From a virus (lineage: Duplodnaviria; Heunggongvirae; Uroviricota; Caudoviricetes): a stretch of 8,447 bases of DNA. The stretch is taken from the IMG/VR virus record IMGVR_UViG_2734482772_000013, positions 1 to 8,447 of that record. The stretch is one strand, 5' to 3'. The notes beneath the pieces are model-generated. The model was given only the letters and a program-made list of their open reading frames with translations, did not search any database and was not told the DNA's origin. This document shows positions 2,020 to 8,447 of the stretch, one piece after another. Both the position numbers and the translations under genes were made by a program. Numbering within the stretch: the stretch's first letter is position 1; each line of letters begins with the position of its first letter.

Positions 2020-2385
2020 TTACTTCGTCATGCCATTCAGGGTGTCGCGGCAGACTGTAGCCAGCCGCTGAATTTCCAGCACGGTGTCTTCTGTGTCGGC
2101 ATGGCGATGTGTGATGCGGATGCTGTCGGCAATCACATCGACGATTGCAGAGGATGGGCGCTGGTAAATGCCAATAACGGACGGTGTGCCGCCTTCAATG
2201 CGGTAAAGCCTGTAATTTCCCTCGTGGCTGTCAATCATGTAGCGACCATCAATAACAATCTTTCCGTCAGCGAGCTGCGGTACAGGCAGGGATTTCAGGT
2301 ACATGTCATAACGTTCACGCACGCGAACGGCAAGATCACGCTCTGTGTTGAGCAGGTATTCAAGAAAGTCGTTGGCGAGAATCAT
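2020..2385 (-). CDS. Hypothetical early-operon protein, 121 aa
   Basis: ORF track; SD-like AAGAGGA about 10 nt upstream of ATG; stop 6 nt before the A-gene start; position equivalent to the small ORFs preceding gene A in P2/186. Confidence 0.6.
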   Translation of the reverse strand: MILANDFLEYLLNTERDLAVRVRERYDMYLKSLPVPQLADGKIVIDGRYMIDSHEGNYRLYRIEGGTPSVIGIYQRPSSAIVDVIADSIRITHRHADTEDTVLEIQRLATVCRDTLNGMTK

Positions 2386-2457
2386 TGCGGCAATCCTCTT
2401 GATACAGATGTGCGAAGGCCTCCCGCCGCAAGGTGCAGGAAAGGCCCGGAACAGGAA

Positions 2458-2688
2458 TTAATGGAGTTTGTTTTGCTGCTGGATGAGCTGCTGAAGCTCG
2501 CGCAGATCATCCGCCAGATAGCTAAATACTGCGGCGGAGTAGGCGTTTGACAGCACGTGGCTGTGCTCATGTGACATGTTGATGAACATGATACGAGCGA
2601 CGCGTGATGCGCGGTAAAGTCTGCGGTTGATTTCAGTCTGGATGTGACGACGCTCCGCGATAGCGCGGTGCTGTTTGCGGTTTGCCAT
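2458..2688 (-). CDS. Hypothetical small basic protein, 76 aa
   Basis: ORF track; good SD (AAAGAGG) about 9 nt upstream of ATG at 2688; first gene after the non-coding terminator region. Confidence 0.55.
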   Translation of the reverse strand: MANRKQHRAIAERRHIQTEINRRLYRASRVARIMFINMSHEHSHVLSNAYSAAVFSYLADDLRELQQLIQQQNKLH

Positions 2689-2866
2689 GGTGTGGCCTCT
2701 TTGGTTGTAAGTTTTGAAAACTCACCATCCAGAGGTGGAAAACTCGGGGTGGTGAGACGTACAGGGTTTCCACAACCGGCAACCAAAGAACCCGGCCCGA
2801 CCGAAGTCGGCCCCATACGCCCCACCATAATTCGTGTGCGAAAAAGACGTGGCGATACGGTACGCA

Positions 2867-2890
2867 CAAAAAAACCGCTGGCGCGGTTGT
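2867..2890 (-). terminator. Putative rho-independent terminator for minus-strand transcription
   Basis: Read on the minus strand: AACCGC-gcca-GCGGTT stem-loop running directly into a T-run (plus strand shows A-run 2868..2874 then ccgctggcgcgg). Confidence 0.45.
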
Positions 2891-3027
2891 GCGCTTTGGT
2901 TGTCAGCGGGGTGGAAATCCCGGCACCCGTTTTATGAGGTGCAGCGGAAATGTAACCTGACTGATTGCGGCATGGCAAGCGGTTTTTTTGTGAGAACGGC
3001 ATACTAAAAAAAATCCTGATACTGCTC

Positions 3028-3052
3028 CGGCCAGCGATTTTCACTGGCCGGG
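3028..3052 (-). terminator. GC-rich hairpin immediately 3' of the SPFH gene stop; possible terminator or mRNA-stabilising stem-loop
   Basis: CCGGCCAG-cgattttca-CTGGCCGG 8-bp perfect stem starting 6 nt after the stop codon at 3058. On the minus strand a T8 run follows only about 13 nt later (3006..3013 on plus), so it is not a canonical terminator geometry. Confidence 0.4.
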
Positions 3053-3057
3053 TTTAA

Positions 3058-3888
3058 TTACTTCACCGGAACAAACGGAACAGCGGTGTTGCTGGTCATG
3101 TATTGCGGCAGCGTGCCGTTCCATTTGTTGATTGCTTCCAGCTCCATAACGCCGGGATTCTGGCGCAGAGCTTCACCGCGTAAACGAATGGCGTCGGCTT
3201 CAGCCTGGGCTTTTGTGCGAATGGCATCAGCCTGTCCGGCAGCTTCTGCGCGCAACATGTTGGCTTCTGCTTCGCGTTGCTTGACTTCCTGTTCGCGTTG
3301 CAGGGTTTTCTGGTTTGCCGTGACTTTGGCGTTAATGCTGTCGATAACGGTTGGCGGATATTCCGGTTTACCGACATAAGAGAGGCTCATGACCTGAATG
3401 CCGATAGGTGTCATTTCTGACTGAATGTCTTTAAGTGCTGAATCCAGCAGTTCAGACTTGCCACCGTCGATAAACTTATCGGTGGTCATTTTGCTGGCCA
3501 GTCGGTTGAGTGCATCGGCGATCTTCTGGCGCAGGTCAGTGTCGGTAATGTCATCCACGCCTTTGCGGTAGGTCTGAAACACTGTGGTAACTTTGGATGG
3601 ATCAACCTTGTAGGCCACACCGATGTGATAGCCGATGGTTGTGCCGTCACTCATCTGAAAGCTGAACGGCTCATCGTAGGTCTTCATTTGTTTGAAGGTC
3701 GGGAAGATGTAAACCTCGGTATTCCAGCCAGTCCAGTAGCGGCCAACGCCAACCACTTCGCCAACGCCTTTGTCGTCGCCCAGCTTGTTGACTTTGATGC
3801 CCACATTACCTGGCTCAACGCGATCGCAGCCAACCAGCAGGATGGCGGCAAAAAGCGGGAGAATCTGAAAGAGTTTGAATTTCTTCAT
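3058..3888 (-). CDS. SPFH / band-7 (prohibitin-flotillin-HflK/C family) domain lipoprotein, 276 aa
   Basis: N-terminal signal peptide with lipobox (LLVGC); core with the SPFH-like pattern GNVGIKVNKLG...EVYIFPTF; Ala/Glu-rich coiled-coil C-terminus (AEANMLRAEAAGQADAIRTKAQAEADAIRLRGEALRQNP) as in HflC/prohibitin C-terminal regions. Start overlaps the upstream stop (ATGA). Confidence 0.85.
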   Translation of the reverse strand: MKKFKLFQILPLFAAILLVGCDRVEPGNVGIKVNKLGDDKGVGEVVGVGRYWTGWNTEVYIFPTFKQMKTYDEPFSFQMSDGTTIGYHIGVAYKVDPSKVTTVFQTYRKGVDDITDTDLRQKIADALNRLASKMTTDKFIDGGKSELLDSALKDIQSEMTPIGIQVMSLSYVGKPEYPPTVIDSINAKVTANQKTLQREQEVKQREAEANMLRAEAAGQADAIRTKAQAEADAIRLRGEALRQNPGVMELEAINKWNGTLPQYMTSNTAVPFVPVK

Positions 3889-4088
3889 TGTTTGATTTCC
3901 TTGATGTACTTACTGAAAAGGCGAACAACGCCTGCCGGGTACAGCATGGCAATGAAAATGCCCAGCAATACCAGGAAGGAGCTGTCTGATGAAATCATTC
4001 GGGGGAGTAGTCCTGCATACAGAATGAGAGAGACGAGGACGCATACCAGCGCCCACATGTATGCGCGAAACCAGGTCTTTTTGTTCAT
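3885..4088 (-). CDS. Small integral membrane protein, 67 aa, two predicted TM helices; partner of the SPFH lipoprotein
   Basis: Two hydrophobic stretches (WALVCVLVSLILYAGLL and FLVLLGIFIAMLYPAGVV); SD AAGGGA about 8 nt upstream; stop overlaps the SPFH start (ATGA coupling). Confidence 0.65.
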   Translation of the reverse strand: MNKKTWFRAYMWALVCVLVSLILYAGLLPRMISSDSSFLVLLGIFIAMLYPAGVVRLFSKYIKEIKQ

Positions 4089-7650: not shown

Positions 7651-8013
7651 ATGATGCATCCTTTAGATAAACTTAAAGAAATGGCAACGCTCGATAATTT
7701 TGCGCGTTTTCTCAATGAGTCGTCTGCGAATGAAAAATGTTTGTCGTGTGGCGATACGGATATGTACATGTATTTGACGAATATTGTTGAGGTGGGGCCT
7801 GAGCCGAAAACTGCTGAGGAGTGTAATTTAGGCACTCTTGTTATGCTTGATTATATTGGCCCATTTACTGGGTATCCTGGATATGAGGGACATGATCGGG
7901 AAAATATCCATAACTATGAATTCAGACTTACCTGCAACAGATGTGGGTTTGTTCATCGTTACTCGGCCCGAGCTTTTATGAGCTGGGTAGGTAAGCAGGG
8001 TGATGACAAATGA
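7651..8013 (+). CDS. Hypothetical protein with two CxxC pairs (putative zinc-ribbon), 120 aa; cargo gene coupled to int
   Basis: Strong SD (AGGAGGTG) 7 nt upstream of ATG, which lies 2 nt after the int stop; Cys pairs CLSC and CNRC about 62 residues apart; no family recognised. Confidence 0.65.
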   Translation: MMHPLDKLKEMATLDNFARFLNESSANEKCLSCGDTDMYMYLTNIVEVGPEPKTAEECNLGTLVMLDYIGPFTGYPGYEGHDRENIHNYEFRLTCNRCGFVHRYSARAFMSWVGKQGDDK

Positions 8014-8447
8014 TGCCGGACAGCACTCCTATTTTACCGTTCAGAAAAAAGAAAGAGAATGCCTATAATGTATCCAACAACCAAGTGACAGGAAGTGGTA
8101 ATGATGGAGGCGATGGCATGAATGACGACCTTGAACGGCGAGTTAGTTGCCTGGAAAGTGATGTAACTGAAATCAAAAACAACCTGATTACTCTCACCAC
8201 GAGAAGCGAATCCTTTGCCACCAAATTTGATGTACTGGAGATTCGTGAAGGGTTGCGGCTTGAGATGGCAGAATCGCGCCAATCCCTGAAGTCTGAGATG
8301 GCTGATTTGCGCCAGTCTCTGAAAGTTGAGATGGCTGAGCATCGTACTGAACTTCAGAAATCATTTGCAAATCAGACCTGGCTACTCACAGGTATTGTCC
8401 TGTCTGCGATGGCTGTGCTTGTGGCTGTTGTTACTGTTATTAAGTAA
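8010..8447 (+). CDS. Coiled-coil, C-terminally membrane-anchored protein (XhlA/DUF1640-like architecture), 145 aa; possible alternative start at 8118 (109 aa)
   Basis: ATG overlaps the upstream stop (ATGA); C-terminal hydrophobic helix WLLTGIVLSAMAVLVAVVTVIK; central tandem 11-residue repeats; the first 36 residues are low-complexity and an in-frame ATG at 8118 has a GGAGG SD 7 nt upstream. Confidence 0.7.
   Translation: MMPDSTPILPFRKKKENAYNVSNNQVTGSGNDGGDGMNDDLERRVSCLESDVTEIKNNLITLTTRSESFATKFDVLEIREGLRLEMAESRQSLKSEMADLRQSLKVEMAEHRTELQKSFANQTWLLTGIVLSAMAVLVAVVTVIK
8262..8360 (+). repeat. Three tandem 33-bp repeats inside the 8010..8447 CDS encoding hendecad repeats EMAESRQSLKS / EMADLRQSLKV / EMAEHRTELQK
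   Basis: Direct reading: repeat units start at 8262, 8295 and 8328, each beginning gagatggc. Confidence 0.8.

Follow-up and report, generated by a model that had tools for sequence, protein, structure and literature searches.

The locus considered here is a non-coding island (positions 2689 to 3057) in a stretch of viral DNA of 8,447 nucleotides (nt), IMG/VR record IMGVR_UViG_2734482772_000013 from the Caudoviricetes, which we call the window. The described systems closest to it are the antisense-RNA immunity regions of the satellite phage P4, of the phages P1 and P7, and of the Salmonella prophage Gifsy-1. The P4 immunity region consists of PLE, seqA, CI with seqB, seqC, kil/eta, epsilon and alpha. 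The immI region of P1 and P7 (a1 b1, c4, a2 b2, icd, ant) is the one on which the Rfam family RF01695 is defined. In these phages a processed antisense RNA binds its own transcript at two short sites and controls an anti-repressor; one of the sites covers the ribosome binding site (RBS) of the first open reading frame (ORF). The a and b sequences set the immunity type, and in P1 the promoter is controlled by the C1 repressor. The C4 work on P1 and P7 is reportedly that of Citron and Schuster in 1990 and of Biere et al. in 1992.

In the isrK-orf45(STnc1160)-anrP locus of Gifsy-1, the IsrK terminator is leaky and is read through, the resulting long RNA is translationally inactive, and IsrK acting in trans activates translation of the anti-repressor encoded further on (Hershko-Shalev et al. 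2016, PMC4825925). These authors find a stable processed RNA, STnc1160, in the place where C4 sits in the window, regard IsrK as a structural homolog of P4 SeqA, and remark on the parallel to SeqA and CI (PMC4825925); in lysogens, both STnc1160 and IsrK show high expression (PMC7067206). The name C4 is not given to the downstream RNA in the published Gifsy-1 model, and Hfq binding and trans-activation by IsrK are reported for Gifsy-1 only. The likenesses that we draw to P1/P7 and to Gifsy-1 rest on this literature.

Two RNA families and their pairing sites

We conclude with considerable confidence that the island is an antisense-RNA immunity module of the P4/P1 type, lying on the minus strand of a P88-like (P2-like, Xuanwuvirus) prophage, because it has the same two Rfam matches and the same promoter geometry as P4 and is followed by a gene of the epsilon family. 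The type of system, C4/CI-IsrK/seqA antisense immunity, is itself known, and the module adds to it a member from P88-like P2-type prophages. All features of the module lie on the minus strand, and their coordinates are given from high to low.

The upstream match (2942..2868) is an isrK/P4 seqA-like small RNA (RF01394; 64.3 bits against a gathering score of 50, E = 2.5e-12) that covers the full length of the model, positions 1-77 of 77. It has two 5' hairpins, a single-stranded linker and an intrinsic terminator (stem 2888..2873, U-run to 2868), the last being called independently by a terminator scan, and its fold has a z-score of -2.4. The downstream match (2832..2745) is a C4 antisense RNA, a homolog of the P4 CI RNA (RF01695; 80.5 bits against a gathering score of 45, E = 4.7e-15), again full-length (model positions 1-87 of 87). 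This RNA folds into an outer stem of 17 base pairs (bp), a UUCG hairpin 1 (2810..2797), a second hairpin with a 12-nt loop (2791..2780) and a junction, and its minimum-free-energy fold (z = -3.4) agrees with the covariance model. The 35-nt spacer between the isrK terminator and C4 (2867..2833) forms a weak 5-bp hairpin (z = -1.85) and would belong to a read-through precursor.

Ahead of the isrK RNA, consensus matching finds a sigma-70-like promoter, TTGCCA-18-TACATT (2978..2949), with an A7 tract (2989..2983) in front. Its -10 hexamer ends 7 nt ahead of the isrK 5' end, and the predicted start of transcription is near 2942; the P4 promoter, TTGCCT-18-TATAGT, leaves the same 7-nt gap to the P4 isrK match. 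Judged from sequence, the predicted promoter corresponds to PLE in P4 and to the promoter of isrK in Gifsy-1.

The comparison with P4 goes further than the promoter. The two families match P4 in the same order, isrK over the PLE leader (8692..8615) and C4 over the CI RNA (8507..8420), and the P4-type arrangement of promoter, seqA, CI (seqB) and seqC in one operon with replication and derepression genes is found in the window as well. The 76-amino-acid (aa) product of the next gene (2688..2458), the first that would be under the control of the module, belongs to the P4 epsilon family, both by its match to the Derepression family (PF25738, E = 5e-8), which is built on P4 epsilon, and by its 30% identity to P4 epsilon itself. 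This protein is shorter than its P4 counterpart (76 aa against 95 aa), the spacer between isrK and C4 is 35 nt here but 107 nt in P4, and the downstream b site described below covers the RBS of the epsilon-like gene, whereas in P4 it lies at the start of kil with epsilon about 245 nt further on. A homology of the following gene, orf121, to P4 orf151 was considered and rejected on comparison, and therefore the block in common with P4 ends at the epsilon-like gene. The host element also differs, being a full P2-like phage with gpA rolling-circle replication and a C/Cox-type switch. It is related to P88 and is not a P4-like satellite (alpha primase, sid/psu/delta), because it replicates with gpA (PF05840). 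With Gifsy-1 the window has in common an isrK RNA and the complementarity of this RNA to the RNA downstream; Gifsy-1, however, is a lambdoid phage with an anti-repressor of the Rha/AnrP type in place of the epsilon-like protein. In P1 and P7 the downstream genes are icd and ant, unlike those of the window.

Which parts of these RNAs can pair with each other? The pairings given here come from an exact-complement scan of C4 against its flanks, as full-length RNAduplex folding gave only meaningless whole-length duplexes. The a' site of C4 (GUGGAAA, C4 positions 60-66), which lies in the junction at 2773..2767, has two copies of its complement UUUCCAC, namely a1 (2917..2911) in the loop of isrK hairpin 2 and a2 (2741..2735), a target site in the downstream leader. 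The b' site (UCUUUGGUUG, C4 positions 44-53), which is borne by the 12-nt loop of the second hairpin, has the complement CAACCAAAG(A); b1 (2902..2894) lies in the single-stranded linker of isrK, and the target b2, CAACCAAAGA (2707..2698), is the complement of the b' loop. This b2 site overlaps the Shine-Dalgarno sequence AAAGAGG (2702..2696) of the epsilon-like gene, 7 nt before its ATG at 2688. Between a2 and b2 there is a third complement, UGGUGAG (2727..2721), to CUCACCA at C4 positions 77-83 on the 3' strand of the outer stem, and this pair may form an alternative hairpin that shows a2 in its loop. The third complement recurs at the same place in P4 and in a Shiga-toxin (Stx) phage, with other sequences and a length of 9 nt; among the relatives of the window it co-varies in one locus (our L177) and misfits in another (L089).

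The window and P4 agree in the C4 positions to which the complements of a', of b' and of the stem strand (77-83/85) correspond, upstream and downstream, while the sequences are different. Those of P4 are UUCUCAC/GUGAGAA and UCCUGUGAA/UUCACAGGA, and the Stx2a phage has the same arrangement with GUAGCAA/UUGCUAC and GUAGUCA/UGACUAC. Since the a and b sequences differ from those of P4, the module of the window and P4 should be heteroimmune.

Strong covariation is seen among relatives. We collected 83 loci with a gene for a relative of the 76-aa protein, using IMG/VR and exact-protein look-ups in place of a contig scan with the epsilon-like alignment, which gave only 3 loci, and aligned the 51 distinct 325-nt regions upstream. 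Across these 51 relatives the promoter hexamers are invariant, and hardly any change is seen in the C4 scaffold or in the helices and terminator of isrK, while the six a/b sites are hypervariable and change together. The C4 helices pair in 99.9-100% of alignment cells, with 5 pairs changed on both sides. For a1-a' and b1-b' taken together, every one of 816 cells pairs and 11 of the 16 pairs have changed on both sides, which gives a covariation score of 0.685, where shuffles give 0.125 and slid pairings no more than 0.17. Pairing to the downstream targets is nearly as complete (b'-b2, 96% of cells, 6 of 11 pairs changed on both sides; a'-a2, 91%, 4 of 8). For the whole structure 98% of cells are paired, 15 of 62 pairs have changed on both sides, and the score is 0.239 against 0.089 in shuffles; when slid, only 39-47% of cells pair.

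A second retrieval brings the collection to 62 distinct modules. These hold 6 a-types and 15 b-loop types in 20 combinations, and therefore the a and b sites reassort. Divergent loci of Salmonella, Serratia and E. coli add further a/b types, all with isrK and C4 at the same distances from the ATG. Both RNAs lie upstream of every epsilon-like gene scanned with Rfam (P88, phage 569R5, 3 further IMG/VR sequences and 7 divergent loci), and gpA follows in all 75 loci with enough sequence.

The original prediction, made from the letters of the island alone, had read it as stacked hairpins and T-runs. The hairpins are parts of two known RNA families, and the functional core is RNA-RNA complementarity rather than stacked terminators; both points were missed there. 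Its suggestion of a structured small RNA turns out to be right twice, for isrK and C4, since the covariance-model search that it proposed matches two families above their gathering scores, both on the minus strand. Its separate regulated promoter for re-initiation has a counterpart in the conserved predicted promoter at 2978..2949 with the geometry of P4 PLE, and termination or attenuation before the replication genes is consistent with the isrK terminator and with the antisense control known from P4, P1 and Gifsy-1. An alignment with related prophages, also called for there, finds the module conserved and the a/b sites co-varying three ways. The minus-strand hairpin with U7 (2888..2868), which had been located exactly, is the isrK terminator, and CCGAC-UUCG-GUCGG, also correctly placed at 2810..2797, is hairpin 1 of C4, its UUCG loop reading on the minus strand and not on the plus strand as claimed. 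The inverted pair CTCACCA...TGGTGAG is present, at 2721..2727 and 2750..2756 instead of 2726..2760, and its CTCACCA arm (2756..2750) is the 3' strand of the C4 outer stem. The palindrome AGTTTTGAAAACT lies exactly at 2710..2722 and is not conserved in relatives; an operator or hairpin role for AGTTTTcAAAACT was rejected, as it varies among relatives, so that we treat it as chance or type-specific. The expected conservation of the hairpins thus holds for the isrK and C4 helices and the terminator, and fails for AGTTTT/AAAACT, which is variable, and for the hairpin after the SPFH gene, which occurs only with an SPFH flank. Folding beats shuffles for the SPFH hairpin, C4 and isrK; the leader 2744..2689 taken alone is not unusual in its folding (z = -1.4).

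Proposed mechanism and other explanations

By analogy with P4, P1/P7 and Gifsy-1, the module would work as follows. Transcription from the promoter at 2978..2949 would start near 2942, and its first 75 nt would be the isrK/seqA-like RNA with its terminator, at which most transcripts would end in the lysogen. Transcripts that read through would be processed by RNase P and others into a stable C4 RNA. This RNA would pair with a2 and b2 on any transcript of the matching type, cover the RBS and block the translation of the epsilon-like gene, and the untranslated RNA would then be terminated by Rho, leaving the cell with no epsilon-like protein and no product of orf121 (121 aa, phrog_3237; 2385..2020) or of the replication endonuclease gene gpA (PF05840; 2013..1, running off the window), two minus-strand genes that the module is presumed to control. 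Between C4 and gpA the terminator scan finds no intrinsic terminator. The short isrK RNA, with a1 and b1 as decoys, would titrate C4 or open the folded precursor, and expression would be turned on. The a/b alleles would be immunity types, a given C4 silencing only modules with matching sites.

Several points weigh against this account. The start site, the read-through, the processing and the termination by Rho are all taken over by analogy. The role reported for the isrK RNA differs from system to system, being that of an activator or decoy in Gifsy-1 and of a contributor to termination in P4, and either may apply here. The target of the epsilon-like protein could be the C repressor of its own phage (6310..6621) or that of another P2-like prophage, and early-promoter transcripts would have to get past the SPFH hairpin to enter the module. 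In a few alleles, such as the L045 type, L089 and L146, the pairing with b2 depends on G-U wobbles or contains a mismatch.

Could the island be a zone of punctuation only, in which stacked terminators and RNA-stabilising hairpins end the SPFH transcript ahead of an ordinary replication promoter, with no trans-acting RNA? A terminator scan counts 8 terminator-like sites in the island where shuffles give 1.8 +/- 1.5, a strong hairpin stands directly after the SPFH stop codon, and the isrK 3' hairpin with its U7 is a canonical terminator, all of which suit such a zone. Punctuation does not, however, account for full-length matches to two RNA families, for the conserved multi-helix fold of C4, or for a three-way covariation of short single-stranded sites that lie 100-200 nt apart. 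No U-run adjoins the SPFH hairpin, and most relatives that bear the module lack this hairpin. We consider this explanation very improbable. A larger share of belief, still a minor one, goes to the possibility that the module acts mainly between elements, C4 silencing matching P4-like satellites or rival P2-like phages, or the epsilon-like protein derepressing rival prophages. The module is shared with the satellite P4, whose epsilon is known to inactivate the P2 C repressor, the a/b sites are extremely diverse and reassort as an arms race predicts, and there can be up to 4 copies in one genome. In every relative, however, a2 and b2 lie in cis on the element's own epsilon-like/gpA transcript, and therefore self-control is built in; moreover, no a/b type matches between the window and P4. 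An action mainly between elements is therefore unlikely in our view.

A further alternative is that the island codes for a protein of the 'Ash family' (Pfam PF10554) and that its hairpins are incidental. A 220-aa ORF (3044..2382) does span the island and matches Phage_ASH at 31 bits against a cut-off of 26, the region is named 'ash family protein' in RefSeq, the record of phage 569R5 has a 205-aa coding sequence here, and the frame is open in 48 of the 51 relatives. PF10554, however, also matches the obsolete 'cI protein' ORF that lies over the CI RNA of P4. The promoter and the predicted transcript start fall inside the ORF, whose GTG start is in cargo sequence that two thirds of the relatives lack. 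Its variable positions keep the three-way RNA complementarity, a constraint that no protein imposes, and in natural variants (the L007 type, L035, L039 and L055) the frame is shifted or interrupted although the RNA pairing is preserved. Over the stretch in common with the epsilon-like gene, relatives agree in the amino acids of this frame to the same degree as in the stop-ridden +2 frame. What we find, despite the 31-bit match, is not a translated and conserved protein of the Ash family, and a coding function of this kind is extremely unlikely; PF10554 itself appears to be built largely on translated sequence of RNA genes. The label is seen elsewhere: RefSeq/PGAP calls the isrK-C4 region an 'ash family protein' (pseudogene) at window 2382..3044 (minus strand), at 3230..3502 of L002 and in H46. 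The GenBank record of P88 (L001, 4119..4307) has a 62-aa 'hypothetical protein' on the strand opposite the isrK and C4 RNAs, which is probably a spurious call over RNA genes.

An open frame across the module

The frame that the databases call 'Ash' contains a stop-free stretch of 148 codons (2828..2382, minus strand), which runs from an AUG in the 5' stem of C4 to an ATGA overlap with the start of orf121 and crosses a2, b2, the whole epsilon-like gene (in its +1 frame) and the spacer that follows. This frame has 148-154 codons in 79 of 85 sequences checked, and likewise in all divergent loci. In the window and in the divergent loci its end is an ATGA that also starts the following gene (five junction contexts); L146, with TAA, is the exception, and in L172, a Salmonella locus with two tandem modules, the frame goes through both without a stop, for 335 codons.

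The +1 frame of all 51 distinct epsilon-like coding sequences has no stop at all, where column-wise synonymous shuffles lead one to expect 3.7 +/- 1.0 stops and reach zero in 1 of 500. The +2 frame has no such avoidance (192 stops observed, 187 expected). Within-gene shuffles give a probability of zero +1 stops of 0.08 to 0.8 per gene, and a comparison of synonymous sites between the epsilon-like gene and gpA carries no information, since gpA is much more diverged. At the amino-acid level the +1 frame is as similar between relatives as the +2 frame, and therefore it is the openness that is conserved, not a protein. From these counts the frame appears to be kept open by selection.

Comparable frames exist in the described systems. 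In P4 the same AUG, at C4 position 5, opens a frame of 111 codons, with kil in frame, that ends just past the start of epsilon, and in the Stx phage the same AUG is in frame with the Rha-family gene. In Gifsy-1 a small AUG-initiated ORF overlaps the processed RNA and is coupled through AUGA to the anti-repressor; this orf45 has 45 codons, against 148 codons here in a frame that overlaps a whole gene. These features suggest a candidate pass-through frame, in which the C4 gene doubles as the 5' end and the passage of ribosomes is what matters, a proposal for which we see the chances as even. Translation would start only when C4 is unfolded, and coupling would carry it on to the replication genes, while the translating ribosomes would also shield the RNA from Rho. 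Such coupling fits the translational coupling of orf45 and anrP in Gifsy-1, the case here being a statistical one. If true, the pass-through frame would extend the 45-codon orf45-anrP coupling to a frame that fully overlaps a gene.

Module boundary, neighbouring genes and spread

We turn to the surroundings of the module. The window matches P88 (P2-like, Peduoviridae, Xuanwuvirus), with 96.5% identity over the island, and also prophages that adjoin btuC in E. coli chromosomes, in agreement with the P2-like prophage of the original prediction. The minus strand has, in order, early-operon genes, a 67-aa gene and the SPFH/Band_7 gene (3888..3058), the island, the 76-aa gene, the 121-aa gene and gpA, while a helix-turn-helix repressor and the integrase are on the plus strand.

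On the cargo side of the island, 6 nt past the SPFH stop codon, there is a GC-rich hairpin with 8 perfect bp, CCGGCCAG/CTGGCCGG (3027..3051, minus strand), which had been reported one base off, at 3028..3052. As RNA it forms 11 bp with -21.8 kcal/mol (z = -5.6), a stability that none of 200 shuffles reaches. A U8 run of the cargo-side flank (3006..3013, minus strand; 6 to 8 in relatives) follows 13 nt downstream; it is the earlier A8 run, whose coordinates, like those of the T7 run at 2983..2989, were exact. Intrinsic termination at this hairpin was considered, but the terminator scan makes no call there and the U-run is 13 nt off.

The left edge of the conserved module, which is the junction to the cargo, is at 2990..2992. 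Leftward of it the relatives show at least 8 different sequences, all adjoining the conserved CAC-A7-CCGCTTGCCA, and other Xuanwuvirus phages match only from window position 2992 (query position 66) downward. SPFH is upstream of the module in 25 of 80 loci, and the hairpin with its U-run is seen only in loci with an SPFH-type left flank. Because the P88-like homology starts near 2992, the flanks vary, and the hairpin and U-run go with the SPFH flank only, we read the leftmost 65 nt of the island as the tail of a variable cargo cassette that lies outside the switch. The boundary of an inserted cargo cassette had been anticipated, and this agrees with the start of homology and with the presence of the SPFH cassette and hairpin in about a third of the relatives. 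In the window the cassette (3058..4088, minus strand) consists of the 67-aa membrane-like gene and the SPFH/Band_7 lipoprotein-like gene (phrog_200); in other relatives the same slot holds DNA methylases, a Rha-like gene or a ParE-like gene. Directly upstream of an immunity module, this slot looks like a moron or defence hotspot.

The module is present in 1155 of 5426 complete E. coli genomes, up to 4 copies in a genome, and is there unannotated or labelled 'ash family protein' or 'hypothetical protein'. In the literature on P88/Xuanwuvirus and on the P2-like 'derepression protein' we found no description of it, in a search that did not reach the classic P4/P1 papers. A puzzling non-coding stretch is resolved into a defined regulatory device, an RNA-based second layer of control that would guard the anti-repressor-like and replication genes of P2-like prophages belonging to a very common family. 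Roughly a fifth of complete E. coli genomes have the module, with RNA genes that are unannotated or mislabelled as an 'ash family protein' pseudogene, and the matched a/b alleles are natural compensatory mutants for studies of RNA-RNA specificity, of heteroimmunity and of possible cross-talk between helper and satellite. Of moderate interest overall, the locus stands out for its wide range of matched a/b alleles, for its mis-annotation and for the candidate pass-through frame.

Some minor observations may be added. In the Salmonella locus L172 (GCA_053839025.1, 701..1500) the whole module is tandemly duplicated. The first unit has isrK at 701-775, C4 at 802-889 and a 77-aa epsilon-like paralog at 946-1179 that is 42% identical to the protein of the window, and the second unit has isrK, C4 and an epsilon-like gene with different a/b types. 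A near-identical P88-like module, with 86% identity in the epsilon-like gene, is found in an assembly labelled Vagococcus sp. (L006, NZ_JBQPOM010000071.1), and an enterobacterial module under a Gram-positive label suggests contamination or a mixed culture. Past the integrase, at the prophage end beside btuC (window 7651..8447, plus strand), there are two genes that may be accessory, for a 120-aa Cys-rich protein and for a protein of 145 aa or more that contains a coiled coil and, at its C-terminus, a transmembrane segment; a Pfam search of both proteins gave no significant match. The lambdoid Stx2a phage has the same layout as the window, with isrK, C4 and then a Rha-family gene. The N-terminus of P4 Kil, MATTLTPSHPEF (L003, 8365..8330), resembles that of this Rha-family protein, MATIPALSHPDV (L004, 3243..3290), both following ..EAAI, and the first ORF past the module may go back to a common ancestor in satellites and in lambdoid phages. 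An ALIL pseudoknot (L004, 5066..5182, minus strand), the frameshift element of IS3-family transposases (RF01497, 121 bits), lies some 2 kb away from the Stx2a module and is unrelated to it.

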